Of a stretch of DNA of 41,263 nucleotides, positions 26,241-33,929 are shown piece after piece. Under the pieces are notes generated by a model that was given only the letters and a program-made list of their open reading frames with translations, was not told the origin of the DNA and did no database searches. The position numbers and the translations under genes were made by a program. Numbering within the stretch: position 1 is the stretch's first letter; each line of letters begins with the position of its first letter. Source of the stretch: an uncultured Candidatus Cloacimonadota bacterium (GTDB taxonomy: Bacteria > Cloacimonadota > Cloacimonadia > Cloacimonadales > TCS61); the NCBI GenBank assembly GCA_964419355.1, contig CAYQOZ010000003.1, forward strand, positions 1 to 41,263, in the 5' to 3' direction.

Positions 26241-27260
26241 TTATTCAAACATTTGTAATTGCCCTTGATTTGGCTTTATCTTAAAATGTTTATATGTTTT
26301 CAAGGTTGCCTTTCTACCTTGAGGTGTTCTGTCCAGAAATCCTTGTTGGATAAGATAGGGCTCATAAATTTCTTCTACTGTTCCGGCATCTTCTCCCAAA
26401 GCAACAGCAAGAGTTTTTATTCCAACAGGTCCGCCATTATAGTTTTCTATTATCAATTTTAGCAATCGTTTATCCATATCATCTAATCCAGCAAAATCGA
26501 CATTTAACATTTTGAGTGCTTTGATTGCAATTTCCTGCGTGATAATTCCATTTCCTTTTATTTGAGCGTAATCCCGAACACGCCGTAAAAGGCGGTTTGC
26601 TACACGTGGGGTTCCACGACTTCGTCTTGCAATCTCTTTTGTGCCATCTTGTTTTAATGGAATATCAAGCAGTTTAGCAGACCGTTCGATAATGGATTCA
26701 ATGCTTTTTAAATCATAATAATCGAGCCGTAAAACTAAACCAAATCTAGCTCGAAGTGGAGATGTGAGTAAGCCAGCACGAGTGGTAGCTCCGATGAGTG
26801 TGAATGGTTCAACATCAATAGAAAGCGAGCGTGCAGATGGACCGCTATCTATGATTATTTCCATTTTAAAATCTTCGATTGCTGGATACATATATTCTTC
26901 CACAATGTGATTTAATCTGTGAATTTCATCGATGAAAAAGACATCATTTCTTTGCAGATTTGTTAATATTCCTGCCAAATCGGGAGCTTTTTCTAAAACT
27001 GGACCAGCACTCACTTTAATCTCGACATCCAGCTCGTTGGCAATTATGTAAGCCAAAGTAGTTTTCCCCAAGCCGGGTGGACCATAAAGTAGAATGTGAT
27101 CGAGTGGCTCTTTTCGCAACTTTGTAGCTTGAATGGAAATATCCAATATCTCTTTGATACTTTCTTGTCCAACAAACTCTTTTAATGTTTTTGGACGCAA
27201 ACTGCGATCAAAATCTTTTTCTTCCGCTATTTCGGAAGGATTTGTAATTCTTTCTAACAT
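26241..27260 (-). CDS. ruvB: Holliday junction branch migration helicase RuvB
   Basis: SLRP, GPPGLGKTT, FIDEIHR, GATTRAG, SRGTPR.ANRLLRRVRD, EPYLIQ.G...RTPQGR. Confidence 0.97.
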   Translation of the reverse strand: MLERITNPSEIAEEKDFDRSLRPKTLKEFVGQESIKEILDISIQATKLRKEPLDHILLYGPPGLGKTTLAYIIANELDVEIKVSAGPVLEKAPDLAGILTNLQRNDVFFIDEIHRLNHIVEEYMYPAIEDFKMEIIIDSGPSARSLSIDVEPFTLIGATTRAGLLTSPLRARFGLVLRLDYYDLKSIESIIERSAKLLDIPLKQDGTKEIARRSRGTPRVANRLLRRVRDYAQIKGNGIITQEIAIKALKMLNVDFAGLDDMDKRLLKLIIENYNGGPVGIKTLAVALGEDAGTVEEIYEPYLIQQGFLDRTPQGRKATLKTYKHFKIKPNQGQLQMFE

Positions 27261-27458
27261 CTATTCCTCTTTTGTTTCAGTTTGTTTTTGAATGATTAAT
27301 CCAAGAAGATATACAACAATTCCAATTTCCAAAATTATGGATGAAGATAAATAATGTGCTCCGTAAGAATATCCAAAAAGTCCAATTACAAGTTTAATAA
27401 AGCCAGATACTAAAGTTAGCAAACCTATCAATTTAATGTAATCGTATGTTTGAGCCAA
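27261..27458 (-). CDS. Small two-TM hypothetical protein
   Basis: Two hydrophobic helices. Start moved to TTG 27458 because GGAGG lies upstream. The stop abuts the ruvB ATG. Confidence 0.6.
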   Translation of the reverse strand: MAQTYDYIKLIGLLTLVSGFIKLVIGLFGYSYGAHYLSSSIILEIGIVVYLLGLIIQKQTETKEE

Positions 27459-27542
27459 AGCAACCTCCCAATAAATAATTATGAATCCTTTTAGTTGAGG
27501 CATACAATTTCTTGCAAGCAATTTTTTAGATTCTTTTTCTTC

Positions 27543-30020
27543 TTAAATTTTTTCACCAATCACATCTTGGTAAATTCTATAAATATCATCATTGAAGCAG
27601 ATAAAAATAACTTTCTCAATTGTAACATTCTCTTCCAAAAAGGATTTAACATTTTTCACTGCTATTTCTGTAGCTCTACGAACTGGAAATCTATAAACAC
27701 CGCAACTGATTGCAGGAAAAGCAATTGTGGAAAGATTATTCTTTATAGCCAGTTGCAAACTTCTCTGATAACAATTCGTAAGCAATTCATCTTCTCTATT
27801 TGAACCGCCGTGCCAAACAGGACCAACAGTATGGATTACATTTTTTGCGGGCAGATAATATCCTTTCGTGATAACCGCATCACCGGTTACACAGCGTCCA
27901 ATTTTTCTACACTCTTTTCGCAATTCAATTCCAGCGGCACGGTGAATGGCTCCATCAACACCACCACCACCCATCAAGGTATTATTGGCGGCATTTACAA
28001 TAGCATCTACTTCTAATTTTGTAATGTCTCCTTTGATAATTTGAATTCTATTTCTAAGTGCTTTTTTCATCTCTTTGTAATAGATAAGAACTTCTTTTCC
28101 TTTTGGAGTAATCCTATATTTTTGATTGGAACTTTGCGGTTTTCTTGGAATTGTGTAAGTTGCCAACTTTTTTCTGCGAATAGAAGAAAGAGCTCTTTTG
28201 AGATTTCCTGCTTTTTTATCTTTACCCAAAATATCTGTTATTTGTGCACTAGAAAGCATATTATCTTGAATTGCTTGCAAAATATTTATTTGAATACTCG
28301 GTAACTCTGGAAAAACTACAAATTTGTTTTGATGACCAATTTTTTTAAGAATTTGGTTTGTATCTCTTGTGTTGCTCATTTTTTTGTAATAATTTATCAA
28401 GCCGTTTGTTGATTGGTCATGAGTTTTTACAGTCTTCTCATTTTTTAGTTCGGGTAGGATATTTTGTGCAAGCTGTTTTCCCAATTCCACTCCCCATTGA
28501 TCAAAACTGAAAATATTCCAGATAACTCCTTGCACAAAGATTTTGTGTTCATACATAGCGATTAAACTTCCCAATGTATGCGGAGTTAGTTGATTAAATA
28601 AAATGGAATTTGTAGGATTATTTCCCGCAAAAGTTTTGTATGGAATTAGAATGTCAGCATCTTCTTGCTTCATTCCTGAACTGTATAATTTTGCTTTAAC
28701 TTCTTTTGCTGTTTTGCCCAACATTAGAGCTTCGGTTTGAGCAAAAAAATTTGCCAAAAGCTTTTGATGATGGTCGCCGACAGGATTATGAGTAGAAATA
28801 GATGCCAGAAAATCACATGGAATCATCTTTGTGCCTTGATGAATAAGCTGGTAAAAAGCGTGTTGTCCGTTTGTTCCCGGTTCACCCCAAACGATTGGTC
28901 CCGTTTCGTAAGAAACTTGATTACCACTTCGGTCTATAGATTTTCCATTACTTTCCATATTTCCCTGTTGGAGATAAGCAGTAAATCGATGCAAATATTG
29001 GTCATATGGTAAGATAGCTTCAGTTTCCGCTCCAAAAAAATTGTTATACCAAATGCCAATCAAAGCAAGAATGACAGGAATATTTTTATTGAAATCGGTA
29101 TTTTTAAAGTGCTGATCCATCGCATAAGCACCTTCCAATAATTCCTTAAGATTTTCAAATCCAATCGAGCAAGAAATTGCCAGACCAATCGCACTCCAAA
29201 GTGAATAACGACCTCCTACCCAATTCCAAAAAACAAACATATTTTCGAGATCGATGCCAAATTCCTTCACCGCTTTTTCATTGGTGGAGATAGCCACGAA
29301 ATGCTTCTTAATAAACTCTTCTTTTTTGGCGTGCAATAAAAACCATTTTCGGGCAGTTCTAGCGTTTGTCATAGTTTCTTGCGTGGTGAAAGTTTTAGAA
29401 GCTATTAAAAACAGCGTGGTTTCCGGATCAATTTTTTTTAGAATTTCCACAATATGCGTGCCATCAATATTGGAAACAAAATGGGATTCGATGTTTATTT
29501 TTTTATAGGGTTTTAATGCTTCTGTTACCATCAGAGGTCCTAAATCGGAGCCACCAATTCCAATATTTACGATGTCGGTAATTGCTTTACCAGTAAAGCC
29601 TTTCCAATGTCCGCTCGTAATTTTTTCGGAAAATATTTTCATCTGCTGAAGCACTTTTTGTATTTTTGGTTTGATATTATTATGGTCAACAATTGTTGGC
29701 GTGTCCGAACTATCTCGCAAAGCTGTGTGCAACACGGCTCTCTTTTCAGTTTCATTAATTTTTGCACCACAAAATAGGTCGTTAATTGCATTATCAAGCT
29801 CAACTTCTCGGGCTAATTTGATGAGAAGTGAAAGTGTCTCTTTGGTGACTATATTTTTGGAAAAATCTACCAAAATGTCTTCAAAAATGAGTGAAAATTT
29901 TTCAAATCTCTTTTTGTCATTTTGAAAAATATCTTTCATTTGAACATTTTTCATTCGCTGAAAATGTTCTTCCAAGTTCATCCAAGCCATTGTTTTAGTG
30001 GGGTTAATCTTCTTTAACAT
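27543..30020 (-). CDS. pgi: Glucose-6-phosphate isomerase fused to winged-HTH and MacroD macrodomain
   Basis: aa 1-548 PGI ([54 protein letters not shown]). aa ~549-650 wHTH-like ([16 protein letters not shown]). aa ~651-825 macrodomain ([36 protein letters not shown]). Confidence 0.9.
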
Positions 30021-30033
30021 ATAGTTTTACCTT

Positions 30034-30195
30034 TTAATTGATTTTAGAAAAGGATATCCTACTTTCACTAATTACATTTTCTTCAGCATCAGTAACTTGG
30101 GGAACTGTTTTTGAATCTCTTTCTACACCATCGATTGCACCAGTCAAAACAGTCAAGAGTAAGATAACAAGAATCAACAATAATACCTTTTTCAT
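30034..30195 (-). CDS. 53-aa small exported or membrane protein (not in ORF track)
   Basis: SD AGGAGA. Translates MKKVLLLILVILLLTVLTGAIDGVERDSKTVPQVTDAEENVISESRISFSKIN*. The stop is 13 nt before the pgi ATG. Confidence 0.7.
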   Translation of the reverse strand: MKKVLLLILVILLLTVLTGAIDGVERDSKTVPQVTDAEENVISESRISFSKIN

Positions 30196-30326: not shown

Positions 30327-33300
30327 ATGAAAAAAATATTTTTATTATTATTGTTGCTACCAATTTTTATTTCGGCAATTAATGTTGAAATTGAACGACC
30401 ACAACTTTTTGGAAATCACTTCACGAATGAATTACCAAAAATGATGAATATTGGCGAGCCAGCGATGCCATTTGTACCCATCAAAATTTTATTGCCGATG
30501 GGCGAAGAGTTGGCTGAAATTTTTGTTGAATTTGGTGATGAAAAAACTTTAGCAGGTTCGCATTACATTGATTTTGCACGTCAGCCGCAACCATTTTCAC
30601 AACCAACTTTTGATGCGACAGAGCCAAATAACGAAATTTACAAAAGCGAAAAATATTTTCCAAATAATAATTATGAAATTCTTGGAACGCAAACTTTTAA
30701 AGGCTATAATTTGCTTTTGGTAAATTTGTTTCCTTACAAATATTCGCCGAAAAATGGAAACATTATTTGGTTTGAAAATGTGGAAATTTCGTTTTCGACA
30801 ACACCAAATTTAGATTTGAAAAACCAACAAAATGAGATGCTAATTTCTAACGACAAAACAAAATCAAAAATCAAAAATATTATTATAAACTCAGAAAACA
30901 TAAGAAGTTACCAAAAAGAATATTTTTCTAAAAACCGTAGTTTGGTGAGTTCGGAAAATCCGTTTGAGATGATTATTATCACCGATGCGGAATGTGAACC
31001 ATATTTTGCGGATTTCATCGATTGGAAAGCAACTCACGATATCTCTGCCACCACTTTTTTAACTTCCGATATTTACGCAGAATATGAAGGCATTAACAAT
31101 CAAGAAAAAATCAAAAATTTTATTCGAGATGCGTTCATCACATTTTCCGCTACTGAAACACCTCTTGAATATGTCATTTTGGGCGGTGATGATGAAATTG
31201 TTCCCATTCGCACAGTTTGGATAGATACGGGTTTTGGCTACACCGATGCCAGTATGCCTTCCGATTTGTATTATGGTTGTCTCGACGATAATTGGGATGA
31301 TAATGAAAATGGAACTTATTGTGAGTTGGAAGATGAACCCGACATCATTCCAGATGTTACGGTTGGCAGATTTCCGGCTGAAACCGAAACAGAATTTGCC
31401 AATATTTTCAATAAAACATACGATTACATTGAAACGACAAATGTGAGCAACGACATCGCTTATATGGTGGGTGAAAATTTGAATTGGGATCCGGTAACTT
31501 GGGGTGGTGATTACAATGATGAAATTTTGGATTCTCTCCCTACTTTTGAAGATGATTATCATGTTTTCAAACTTTATGGACGCGAGGGAACTTACAGTCC
31601 ACAAAATGTAAAAGATGCAATAAACAACGGCTTGAGCATCATAAACCATATGGGACATTCCAACGAATCTATCGTTTTTGGACAAAACATAGGCTCAGTG
31701 AATAGCTACACAAATACAGAATTTGGGTTTGCTTACACCCAAGGTTGTTACCCTGCCGCCTTTGATGAAATGACAAGTCAGCAAGGTGAAAGTATTGCGG
31801 AAAATTTGGTGAAAGGTGAACGTGGTTTGTACGCTTTTGTTGGCAATACGCGTTACGGTTGGTACATGCCCGGCAGCACTGATGGACCTTCTCAACCTTA
31901 CGATATAGAATTTTTCGTGGCAATTTTTAATAATAATATTCGCCAACTTGGAAAAGCACTTGATGAATCGCGTATAATTTTGGCAAATACGGCTTTACAA
32001 TATGGATGTAATCGCTGGGTACATTTGGAATTAGTGCTTTTTGGTGATCCCTCTATTGCCGTAAAAGAACCGATTGGTGCGTTCCCGTTTATCCAACCAT
32101 ATTTGGTGGAATTTGATGATTCCCAAACTGGTGATAGTGATGAAACGTCAAATCCGGGTGAAAATATTGAAATCAATGTAGTTTTGGAAAATTTGGAAGG
32201 TTGGGCGGATGCGACTGATGTTGGTGCGATTCTTACCTTCGAAGATAATACAATTCAAATTTTGACGGGTGAAGTTTCTTATGGCAATATTGAGAATGGA
32301 ACGCTTGGCACTGCTTCTCCATTTCTCATCTCAATTCCGCAAGATTGCAATTATGACTCTTATAAATATACTGTTACCGTTGCCGCACCCGTTACCGAGA
32401 ATTCCTACTTTGAACGCTCTTACGATTTTGATTTGCAGATTTCACTATTTCAACAAAATTGGCCTTGGGCAGCATCTTCCACAGTTCTTGGAAATCCAAT
32501 CATCACCGATTTTAATGAAGATGGAACGAGTGATATTTTAATTGTTGATGCAAATTCAAACATAAATTTATTGAATATTGATGCAGAACAACATTCTGGT
32601 TTTCCGCTGAATGGCGACTCTGGTATTTGGAAAAGCATCGCATTTGGGGATATCAATAATGATGAAAGTTCAGAAATTATTATTGCAAATCGTGATGGTG
32701 AAATCATCGCAATCGATAATTATGGAAACGAAATTTTTAATAATGCCGAATGTTGCGAACAACTTCTCACTCCGATAATTGCCGATGTGAATGGTGATGA
32801 AAATATGGATATCATTAGTTTTGGCATGAATAAAATGTTGAATGTTTTGGATAATTCTGGGAATATGTTGCCGAATTTTCCAATTGAATTTTCTTCCATC
32901 TCTTTGAATGAAATGGCTTCTGTCGACTTCGATGAAGATGGTAAAAATGAAATTTTAATTGGTATCTCTTCTCCAGGAATTTTGCACGCTATAAATCATT
33001 TAGGCGAAAATATTGCCGATTTTCCGGTCGAATTTTCAGCCTCACTTTGCTCGGCACCGATTGTGTTGGATAATCTGAAAATTGCGGTGGGAACTTCTGA
33101 TAACAAAATTCATCTCATCGATAATTTGGGCAACATTCTGTTTACAAAAAATTTGAATGGAAGAGTCGTGAAATCTGCCATTGCAACCGATTTCGACAAT
33201 GATGAAGTCTTGGAAATCGCTTTTGCAACAACAAATGGTGAACTTCATATCATCAATCAAAATGGCGAATATTTGAACGGTTGGCCAATTGACATTGATT

Positions 33301-33929
33301 CTTCAATTCCAAATGCACCAATTTCTGCCGACATAAATAATGATGATTTTGCCGATTTACTCTGCTTCAATTCATTGAGCGACTTTTTTGCATTTGATGC
33401 AAATGGTATCGAATTTGATTTCGCACCAGTCCCGATAGGTCTCATCGGAAATACGCCTGCCAGTATTGAAGATATTGATGGAGATGGCGATTATGACATC
33501 ATTGCCGGCACCACGACGGGAGCGATTATTATCGATTGTAAACTTCCTAAAGGTGAGAAAATTCCGTGGAATACATATCGTGGGAATTTGTGCAGAACTG
33601 GATTTTATGGTGATAATGAAATATTCACAAATGTAAATAATAACGAATTGGAAATAACGAATTTCAATTTGCAAAACTATCCAAATCCATTTAATGATGC
33701 AACTACTATTTCGTTCACATTAAATGCTGAAAATACTAAAAAAGCCGAAATTGAAATTTACAATATAAAGGGACAGAAAGTGAAAACTTTTCCCAATCTC
33801 CAAATCACGAATTCACCAAATTTCCAAATAGTTTGGAACGCCAAAAAATTCTCATCTGGTATCTATTTTTACCGTCTAATTGCAGATGATAAAATTATAA
33901 AAACAAAAAAATGTTTGTTGATAAAATAG
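30327..33929 (+). CDS. C25 (gingipain-like) cysteine peptidase with FG-GAP-like repeats and a T9SS-like C-terminal domain
   Basis: Signal peptide, propeptide GEPAMP, YVILGGD..IVP, SDLYY, VGRFP, NHMGHS, QGCY, LFGDP. Repeated D(I/F/V)(N/D).D motifs. NYPNPFN...YNIKGQKV...SGIYFY. Confidence 0.9.
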   Translation: MKKIFLLLLLLPIFISAINVEIERPQLFGNHFTNELPKMMNIGEPAMPFVPIKILLPMGEELAEIFVEFGDEKTLAGSHYIDFARQPQPFSQPTFDATEPNNEIYKSEKYFPNNNYEILGTQTFKGYNLLLVNLFPYKYSPKNGNIIWFENVEISFSTTPNLDLKNQQNEMLISNDKTKSKIKNIIINSENIRSYQKEYFSKNRSLVSSENPFEMIIITDAECEPYFADFIDWKATHDISATTFLTSDIYAEYEGINNQEKIKNFIRDAFITFSATETPLEYVILGGDDEIVPIRTVWIDTGFGYTDASMPSDLYYGCLDDNWDDNENGTYCELEDEPDIIPDVTVGRFPAETETEFANIFNKTYDYIETTNVSNDIAYMVGENLNWDPVTWGGDYNDEILDSLPTFEDDYHVFKLYGREGTYSPQNVKDAINNGLSIINHMGHSNESIVFGQNIGSVNSYTNTEFGFAYTQGCYPAAFDEMTSQQGESIAENLVKGERGLYAFVGNTRYGWYMPGSTDGPSQPYDIEFFVAIFNNNIRQLGKALDESRIILANTALQYGCNRWVHLELVLFGDPSIAVKEPIGAFPFIQPYLVEFDDSQTGDSDETSNPGENIEINVVLENLEGWADATDVGAILTFEDNTIQILTGEVSYGNIENGTLGTASPFLISIPQDCNYDSYKYTVTVAAPVTENSYFERSYDFDLQISLFQQNWPWAASSTVLGNPIITDFNEDGTSDILIVDANSNINLLNIDAEQHSGFPLNGDSGIWKSIAFGDINNDESSEIIIANRDGEIIAIDNYGNEIFNNAECCEQLLTPIIADVNGDENMDIISFGMNKMLNVLDNSGNMLPNFPIEFSSISLNEMASVDFDEDGKNEILIGISSPGILHAINHLGENIADFPVEFSASLCSAPIVLDNLKIAVGTSDNKIHLIDNLGNILFTKNLNGRVVKSAIATDFDNDEVLEIAFATTNGELHIINQNGEYLNGWPIDIDSSIPNAPISADINNDDFADLLCFNSLSDFFAFDANGIEFDFAPVPIGLIGNTPASIEDIDGDGDYDIIAGTTTGAIIIDCKLPKGEKIPWNTYRGNLCRTGFYGDNEIFTNVNNNELEITNFNLQNYPNPFNDATTISFTLNAENTKKAEIEIYNIKGQKVKTFPNLQITNSPNFQIVWNAKKFSSGIYFYRLIADDKIIKTKKCLLIK

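Follow-up and report, generated by a model that had tools for sequence, protein, structure and literature searches.

Why should glucose-6-phosphate isomerase, a textbook housekeeping enzyme, carry beyond its own C-terminus a winged-helix domain and, beyond that again, a macrodomain, macrodomains being the main readers and erasers of ADP-ribosylation? The question is raised by one gene of an uncultured Candidatus Cloacimonadota bacterium. It lies on a stretch of 41,263 nucleotides (positions 1 to 41,263 of contig CAYQOZ010000003.1, assembly GCA_964419355.1), here called the window, whose minus strand holds at 27543..30020 a single ATG-started open reading frame (ORF) of 825 codons with zero internal stops, followed by its stop codon at 27543-27545. 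The original prediction, made from the letters of the window alone, had seen there a complete phosphoglucose isomerase (PGI, the same enzyme under another name) joined to a winged helix-turn-helix (wHTH) stretch and a MacroD macrodomain, with junctions at about 28070 and at 28377. Pfam, NCBIfam and fold evidence uphold all three identities, and both coordinates are right. What is new is the arrangement, in one protein, of three known domain families.

Read along the protein, residues 1-548 (28377..30020, on the minus strand as are all parts of the gene) are a complete long-type glucose-6-phosphate isomerase. The NCBIfam model of that name, NF001211, matches residues 4-548 over its positions 3-542 of 544 with 861 bits (cut-off 492), and PF00342 is covered from 1 to 486 of its 486 positions at 786 bits (cut-off 22), the PGI match in the Pfam scan of the 825-residue protein extending over 52-542 (E 1.4e-236). 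Next is a variable tether, residues 549-572 (28305..28376), predicted from its low identity (0.25) and low model confidence to be disordered. Residues 573-645, with a C-terminal helix that continues to about 657 and enters the macrodomain (28050..28304 together), form the putative wHTH of the Fic-like_C family, PF21247, a placing that draws on Pfam, an AlphaFold2 (AF2) model and fold searches; the Pfam match spans 579-638 with E 6.2e-5 and 23.2 bits where the cut-off is 27. The remainder, residues 658-825 (27546..28049), is a macrodomain of MacroD/YmdB type, matched over 658-823 by NF001664 (O-acetyl-ADP-ribose deacetylase; 214.6 bits, cut-off 200) and over 675-787 in the Pfam scan (E 2.4e-44), with PF01661 scoring 150.5 bits on the macro part (cut-off 22). 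Within its own genome, which is 95% complete, the fusion is the sole match to PF00342 and the sole match to PF01661; in the genome search PF21247 reaches 28.2 bits (cut-off 27), and no other gene there has that domain.

Because residues 2-546 align end to end with chain positions 1-545 of the 549-aa (amino acid) PGI of Escherichia coli (3nbu, E 2e-255), the extension begins exactly where free PGIs end. The motif regions are identical to those of the E. coli enzyme in the printed alignment. Among 37 aligned fused proteins (that of the window and 36 cluster representatives, the identical P0002, the fragments P0008, P0014 and P0023 and the short P0044 and P0049 being left out) R271, E356 and H387 are invariant and K515 is nearly so; these we take to be the Arg, Glu, His and Lys of the isomerase active site. 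A complete PGI with its catalytic motifs intact, as had been claimed, is borne out by the full-length match and the invariant residues. PGI of the long type is an obligate homodimer, and we infer from the sole-copy status and the conservation that the PGI part is an active isomerase and homodimeric.

Could the joining of these parts be an artefact, a misassembly, a chimeric contig or a stop codon lost from one metagenome-assembled genome (MAG)? The MAG is fragmented, in 203 contigs, and the read-level support is from one marine-metagenome study, one sample of which is possibly the source. From four public runs of that study, contigs have no differing letters or indels when compared with the gene. 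In run X1, the possible source sample, the whole gene stretch is covered without difference; 28377 is bridged in X1 and X2, and the wHTH-macro junction at about 28070 in X1, X2 and X3. Both junctions, at which the original prediction had envisaged that reads might reveal stops or misassembly, are bridged by contigs, those of other samples included, and neither stops nor misassembly were found. The domains that flank the two junctions are under purifying selection, and, as that prediction had also envisaged, there are independent genomes: the same architecture is in 29 of 62 genomes of the family, from many assemblies, and in 42 metagenomic protein clusters from several sources. An artefact is vanishingly improbable. 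The fusion is confirmed as genuine, and it occurs in uncultured marine and sediment Cloacimonadota. Separately, within the PGI part 33 nucleotides (28830-28862) are matched in all four runs by very deep contigs of other organisms, with word depth 489-1693 and 3 mismatches; this is a highly conserved PGI motif and no feature of this genome.

How is the fusion distributed? A search of 41 related genomes yielded eight full-length fused copies without stops, each of the eight genomes having one match to the query. The 29 fused genomes of the 62 in the family comprise 26 with near-full-length matches and 3 whose matches are cut by contig ends and cross the junctions, and all fall in four genera: g1 (5 of 5 genomes), g7 (3 of 4), g14 (14 of 14) and g17 (7 of 9). 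The fourth g7 genome has no match and is 74% complete. One of the two other g17 genomes is without a match; the second, G050, was considered as an unfused member of a fused genus and was dropped, as its contig ends at the last matched PGI codon. A pattern scan of species-representative genomes for the middle domain gave 17 loci, and all 16 of those named Cloacimonadota have the order PGI-middle-macro in a single frame, five of them cut by contig ends (these loci overlap the genomes of the family survey and are not an independent count). In a protein collection, the 120 matches listed for residues 545-825 include 42 clusters with both PF00342 and PF01661. The fused clusters that bear a name are from Cloacimonadota and are labelled just 'glucose-6-phosphate isomerase', and one name from JGI reads 'glucose-6-phosphate isomerase/O-acetyl-ADP-ribose deacetylase'. 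One fused copy has a single in-frame TAG within its PGI part (after QTEA), the match being otherwise collinear and full-length. It is listed twice, as L046:366-2852 and as G070:C226:3992-6475, probably from the same genome, and is either a nonsense mutation or a MAG error.

Are all three parts kept for what they do? Mean pairwise identity among the 37 proteins is 0.73 for PGI (1-548), drops to 0.25 in the first linker (549-572), rises to 0.57 in the middle domain (573-645), is 0.26 in the second linker (646-657) and 0.69 in the macrodomain (658-825), a pattern that points to three folded domains joined by two variable stretches. The ratio of nonsynonymous to synonymous substitution rates (dN/dS), by the Nei-Gojobori method on the eight closest pairs among 16 fused genes, is 0.07-0.15 for PGI, 0.07-0.22 for the middle domain and 0.05-0.13 for the macrodomain. 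Purifying selection thus acts with similar strength on all three. Nine residues of the middle domain are invariant, the invariant positions including G605, N606, R609, Q633 and T638. Decay of the added domains, which had been named as an outcome that would tell against the fusion, is not seen at these values, and we consider it almost certain that the protein is real and selected and that all three of its parts are functional.

What is the middle domain? An AF2 model from an eight-sequence alignment has a core with predicted local distance difference test (pLDDT) values of 82-92 and the order H-b-H-H-b-wing-b, then a long helix. Foldseek matches it to regulators of the PadR and MarR families, DNA complexes among them, with probability 1.00 and template-modelling (TM) scores of 0.55-0.73, and VIA-align finds RosR, YodB/HxlR, PadR and MarR at Z 11-12.8 over 85-97 residues, all rows tied, and therefore identifies the fold class alone. 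On these models the domain is predicted to have a winged helix-turn-helix fold. Its likeness to PadR-type regulators, the best sequence match being 4esb at E 0.043, is at the level of fold and it is not filed as a member of that group. No chain of a Fic protein is in the top rows of the Foldseek or VIA-align searches, similarity to them being still possible, and a features search of the ESM Atlas, with matches of 0.85, gave a weak lead to small wHTH proteins. In every one of the 37 proteins the domain is strongly basic, with an isoelectric point (pI) of 9.7-11.2 and a net charge of +5 to +15 across its 73 residues; the linkers are close to neutral. The first 23 residues of the domain model, 545-567, are below pLDDT 50. 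The full-length AF2 model is weak (mean pLDDT 67.4, predicted TM score 0.46, residues 330-432 poor), too weak for inter-domain geometry, and was used for linker confidence alone; its sole low-confidence inter-domain stretch is 551-569, also below 50, and a helix at 639-658 with pLDDT of about 80 enters the first strand of the macrodomain. We read this as PGI trailing a probably flexible tether, from which a more rigid unit of wHTH, helix and macrodomain hangs.

With which other proteins is such a domain found? Searched against 1.84 billion representative proteins, a profile built from the middle domains of eight fused genes picks out 2,419 at E<=1e-3, and from the top 150 of these, 33, chosen mostly for a length able to hold other domains, were scanned. 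PF21247 is matched by 31 of the 33, HATPase_c_4 is carried by 18 and SLFN_AlbA_2 by 6, some have up to seven tandem Fic-like_C copies, and an AraC-type regulator, DUF4062 and an NAD-dependent epimerase are rare partners. The motif at the domain's tail that the original prediction quoted is there, in the most conserved part of the domain, and the link it drew from that tail to Fic-like and ATP-binding proteins agrees with these counts. Of the 42 fused clusters, 5 carry a precomputed PF21247 annotation. The lone pattern-scan locus from outside Cloacimonadota, L054, labelled Gammaproteobacteria, combines AlbA_2, HATPase_c_4 and Fic-like_C, with PF21247 at 31.8 bits.

The macro part matches E. coli YmdB (5cb3/1spv) over its full length with E 7e-53. 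The catalytic residues of YmdB given in the parts of a review of bacterial ADP-ribosylation drawn on here (PMC8120803) are N22, N25, G32, D35, H39 and Y126. Each of the six has its counterpart here (N676, N679, G686, D689, H693 and Y776), invariant or nearly so in the 37 proteins. With a dN/dS of 0.05-0.13, this conservation makes it probable that the domain binds ADP-ribose or acts as a hydrolase. The residue after Y776, R777, is invariant in the fused proteins; R, H, S, C or G is at the same position in the free macrodomains of relatives. The change of GVYG to GVYR had been entertained as an inactivation specific to the fusion and was rejected, for free macrodomains of relatives share it; it is a lineage variant of the last position of the motif, neither decay nor linked to fusion.

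A separate observation is that, among the matches listed, macrodomains of YmdB type 50-62% identical to this one end many unrelated proteins. The commonest listed partner is ADP-ribosylglycohydrolase (ARH), in Myxococcota, and the others are prephenate dehydrogenase, aminotransferase, GH43, NfeD-type, vWA, inorganic pyrophosphatase, HD phosphohydrolase, SnoaL-like, FHA and CHAT.

What might supply the macrodomain with substrate? The window's own genome has no match to SIR2, SIR2_2, Tpt1/KptA, ADP-ribosylglycohydrolase or TIR_2; searches of it for DarT and the PARP family also gave none, their positive controls likewise matching nowhere, so these two are uninformative. It has one Nudix protein, with no family above cut-off, ADP-ribose pyrophosphatase included. 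Across the family SIR2 (PF02146) was found in 14 of the 29 fused genomes as against 30 of the 33 others, counts of relatives that are not independent and to which no statistical test was applied. Of the 15 fused genomes in which no sirtuin was detected six are at least 90% complete; in g14 SIR2 is in 4 of 14 genomes and in g1, the own genome counted, in 2 of 5. This suggests repeated loss of sirtuins in the fused genera. In the pair G003 and G004, both without SIR2, the dN/dS of the macrodomain is 0.07. The macrodomain is under purifying selection where no sirtuin is found, and therefore the disposal of sirtuin-made O-acetyl-ADP-ribose cannot be its whole role.

From where did the parts come? 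Four unfused relatives (G007, G009, G011 and G013) have pgi and the macrodomain gene as two separate neighbours in the same orientation, the gaps between them being about 290, 300, 650 and 36 bp respectively. In G023 they are 4 kb apart on one contig, and in other genomes on different contigs. No trace of the wHTH was found in the pgi-macro gaps of unfused relatives, which hold unrelated small ORFs, and an ORF with AlbA_2 and HATPase_c_4 upstream of pgi in G011 has no Fic-like_C match. One occupant, in G009 (L014:2144-2440, beginning MKKYNVICELVCVTYDIGPSLSPFV), is an intact ORF of about 100 aa, by eye presumably akin to small proteins of MTH1187/YkoF type; the homologous stretch in G007 (L013:2740-3020) is broken by stops and frameshifts. 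In the PGI tree six of the eight fused genes form one clade (support 93/88) and two are in a polytomy; constraining all eight to one clade gives a slightly better tree and is not rejected (approximately unbiased test, p-AU 0.586). The macrodomain tree has the eight fused domains in one clade, weakly supported (approximate likelihood ratio test, SH-aLRT, 73) and nested among free macrodomains of the same family (G011, G016 and G019). From the two trees and the neighbouring genes it would therefore seem that the family itself supplied both halves, and that they fused once, within it, would be the simplest reading. As to the enzyme itself, a long PGI of E. coli type (some 549 aa, with 58-76% identity to that of the window) turned up in the window's own family alone. 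Elsewhere in the order, 16 genomes of 12 families gave best PGI matches of 27-31% identity, from open frames that span 389-474 aa, and one genome gave none. It may be that the family acquired this PGI type, or switched to it, ahead of the fusion. In genus g11 a long-type PGI match at E<=1e-100 is missing from all four genomes (G014, G047, G048 and G049), and a free YmdB-like macrodomain gene is present in G014.

The fusion has later variants. Two of the 42 clusters have in-frame deletions that keep PGI and macrodomain together: P0049 (748 aa) is without the wHTH core, and P0044 (762 aa) is without the first 60 or so wHTH residues, with the wing and last helix retained. A third protein, P0272 (284 aa, Fic-like_C and Macro, annotated 'O-acetyl-ADP-ribose deacetylase [Candidatus Cloacimonadota bacterium]'), begins at a Met that aligns with residue 549 of the window protein. 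Might it be the ancestral wHTH-macro intermediate? This was rejected, as it is 87% identical to the tail of the fused P0010 and 85% to the fused gene of G042; it is probably the product of a later split, or of gene calling on a broken copy. Its start, exactly at the equivalent of Met549, brings to mind another use, that an internal start within the intact gene yields a free wHTH-macro protein beside the PGI form, two proteins from one gene. That is very improbable: a Shine-Dalgarno-like motif precedes codon 549 in none of the 14 genes examined, in 4 of the 14 the codon is not a start codon, P0272 is nested in the fused clade, and 25 of the 26 near-full-length copies have no stop between domains, the lone TAG (G070) being inside the PGI part.

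The surroundings of the gene are an ordinary housekeeping chromosome, not a defence or mobile region. The window has rtcB, bamA, a recB-like helicase gene, a gene for a Na+/solute symporter, gpsA, ruvB, hrcA-grpE-dnaK-dnaJ, a pepN-like gene and a gene for a 1200-aa cargo protein of the type IX secretion system (T9SS) type. Downstream of the fused gene and co-oriented with it is ruvB (26241-27260, minus strand; NF000868, 495.5 bits), and between the two an 86-aa hydrophobic ORF (27261-27521, minus strand) has no Pfam match. Relatives have in its place an ORF for an MnmC-like methyltransferase (Methyltransf_30 in a Pfam scan of L002); there this ORF, or glpK, overlaps or abuts the fused stop codon and is followed by ruvB. 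On the upstream side a 53-aa ORF with a signal-peptide-like N-terminus (30034-30195, minus strand, beginning MKKVLLLILVILLLTVL) ends 13 nucleotides (nt) before the fused start codon. Its position is taken in relatives, where the fused gene is inside housekeeping operons, by an ORF of about 248 aa that in several loci ends 3-87 nt upstream. Divergent from the fused gene is that for the 1200-aa secreted protein (30327-33929, plus strand), which weakly matches models of T9SS-dependent cargo and of PorU-like proteins and has a C-terminal tail of T9SS type.

What, then, might be gained by having the three domains in one protein? The original prediction had supposed that hexose-phosphate flux could thereby be coupled to NAD+/ADP-ribose signalling and DNA binding, or the glycolytic enzyme be shielded from ADP-ribosylating toxins or phage enzymes; both ideas are conjectural. 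The reading we prefer, with a probability of roughly 0.45 and so a tentative one, is by analogy, and is that the fusion serves as a scaffold which targets the macrodomain to nucleic acid. The PGI part would stay a housekeeping isomerase, its dimer doubling as a dimerisation platform, and from each subunit a flexible tether of about 20 aa would hang one wHTH-helix-macro unit. The paired basic PadR/MarR-like wHTH domains would, by analogy with the Fic proteins CccR and SoFic considered below, bind nucleic acid, and the macrodomain would thereby be placed on DNA or RNA. There it might be the ligand-handling head of an ADP-ribose-responsive regulator, or else a hydrolase clearing ADP-ribose from nucleic acids or nucleoid proteins. 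The activities of PGI and macrodomain are probably chemically independent of each other, and the gain from fusion is likely to be dimeric presentation together with constitutive, equimolar expression with an essential enzyme. A complex prediction of PGI 1-548 with wHTH-macro 573-825 (ipSAE, an interface score, 0.00 and 0.00) weighs neither way. A bolder thought is that the protein is a 'trigger enzyme', its PGI dimer the dimerisation core of a macrodomain-gated DNA-binding factor in which occupancy of the macrodomain pocket by ADP-ribose (or something related), or hydrolysis there, alters DNA binding by the wHTH. We consider this doubtful. If true, it would wire NAD+/ADP-ribose turnover to gene expression, possibly to PGI activity also; no earlier bacterial regulator would have had a macrodomain for its sensor, and no earlier PGI a direct part to play at DNA.

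Several observations weigh against the scaffold and targeting proposal. The score of PF21247 in the scan of the protein is below threshold, and the best sequence match to a solved Fic protein (4rgl_A, E 0.022) is weak. The second macrodomain motif, G-[VIA]-[YF]-G, is departed from, reading G-V-Y-R. No producer of ADP-ribosylated substrates was found in the own genome among the families SIR2, SIR2_2, Tpt1 and TIR_2. To judge from P0049 and P0044 the wHTH appears dispensable in rare lineages. Since YmdB-like macrodomains are joined to so many enzymes of unrelated kinds, a fusion by itself might call for no special functional link. An upstream search for an operator gave, for the window, only weak AT-rich inverted repeats, and inspection of the 17 loci by eye showed nothing conserved; as there is no conserved operator-like repeat, and 3-87 nt to the preceding ORF, classic autoregulation at the gene's own promoter is therefore not evident.

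Some of the same facts are what would be expected if two neighbours had simply merged without functional coupling, a co-transcribed pgi and YmdB-like macrodomain gene becoming one, with the wHTH mainly a folded spacer, the enzymes acting as their free forms do, and the essential gene being hard to split again. The two genes are indeed adjacent in four unfused relatives, such macrodomains are joined elsewhere to ARH, prephenate dehydrogenase, aminotransferase, GH43 and pyrophosphatase, two of the 42 clusters have lost the wHTH and kept the fusion, and the tether is flexible in the AF2 models. However, a dN/dS of 0.07-0.22, nine invariant residues and a pI above 9.6 in 37 of 37 proteins exceed what a spacer needs, the true spacers beside the wHTH being just 25% identical; the macrodomain is under purifying selection in lineages without a detected sirtuin; and the fusion is kept across four genera and 29 genomes. 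Merger without coupling, the main rival of the scaffold reading, is on balance somewhat unlikely. The conserved basic wHTH is also what is left unexplained by a role in cis, the second idea of the original prediction, in which PGI would be ADP-ribosylated by a transferase of a competitor or phage, or by free ADP-ribose, and the macrodomain would reverse or sense the modification. The flexible tether would let the macrodomain reach the PGI surface, the fusion is the cell's sole PGI, and mammals offer a distant parallel in the binding and stabilisation of PGI by PARP14, a macrodomain protein, as described in the passages cited (PMC13224862, PMC6501648). Nothing points, though, to modification of PGI in bacteria, no ADP-ribosyltransferase was found in the own genome (with weak controls for two of the searches), and the gene context is one of housekeeping rather than defence; protection or regulation in cis is improbable.

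A stable and selected fusion suggests that these organisms link the handling of ADP-ribose to a central metabolic enzyme or to the nucleoid. It is a natural and compact system in which to study the role of free-standing bacterial YmdB-type macrodomains, and it allows one to ask whether, beyond the Fic family too, dimerisation of a DNA-binding domain can be provided by an enzyme dimer. Were the parts fully independent, it would be a clean example of neighbouring genes fusing and remaining fused. The original prediction knew of no described PGI with this architecture. The literature agrees: no description of a PGI-wHTH-macrodomain protein was found in full text, a scope outside which most subscription journals fall, and the available text of the bacterial ADP-ribosylation review (PMC8120803) has no mention of isomerase, 'fused' or 'fusion'. 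The databases do hold such proteins, as 'glucose-6-phosphate isomerase'.

How does the protein compare with systems that are better known? Free PGIs, such as E. coli Pgi (3nbu), end at about 549 aa, while the fused protein runs 277 residues further. NF007080, bifunctional transaldolase/phosphoglucose isomerase, to which there is a weak partial match here, is also a PGI fusion, the difference being that its partner is a pathway neighbour whereas macrodomain and wHTH have no known role in sugar-phosphate metabolism. With E. coli YmdB and MacroD the macro part has in common the full-length match and all six catalytic counterparts; unlike YmdB it is fused rather than free-standing and has GVYR instead of GVYG. 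The ATP-binding proteins with SLFN_AlbA_2 and HATPase_c_4 are, among the 33 scanned, the commonest carriers of the middle domain's closest relatives, yet beyond Fic-like_C they have nothing in common with the fusion. NrtR-type regulators, in which a Nudix domain is combined with a wHTH, are ADP-ribose-responsive repressors. The logic of NrtR (NF050029), an ADP-ribose-handling domain joined to a winged helix, is similar, and this is analogy alone, for here the domain is a macrodomain and not Nudix, the domain order is another, and PGI is attached. CccR and SoFic differ in that their enzyme is Fic and not PGI; in the fusion the wHTH is internal and followed by a macrodomain, its DNA binding is predicted, and the sequence likeness is weak. 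In the sections of the CccR report relied on here, the C-terminal HTH of this Yersinia pseudotuberculosis protein recognises, as a dimer, a palindrome of the protein's own promoter with a dissociation constant (KD) of 2.56 uM; loss of the HTH lowers this binding 250-fold and mutation of the dimer interface 148-fold, and the enzymatic and regulatory activities are independent (PMC9755527). For SoFic of Shewanella oneidensis the portion of the preprint consulted reports that the dimer binds its own promoter and the monomer does not (bioRxiv 10.64898/2026.07.09.737422). Each is likewise an enzyme with a wHTH of the same Pfam family, and in each, on those accounts, DNA binding needs dimerisation of the enzyme part, which makes the pair, by analogy, the best precedent for how the middle domain of the PGI fusion might act.

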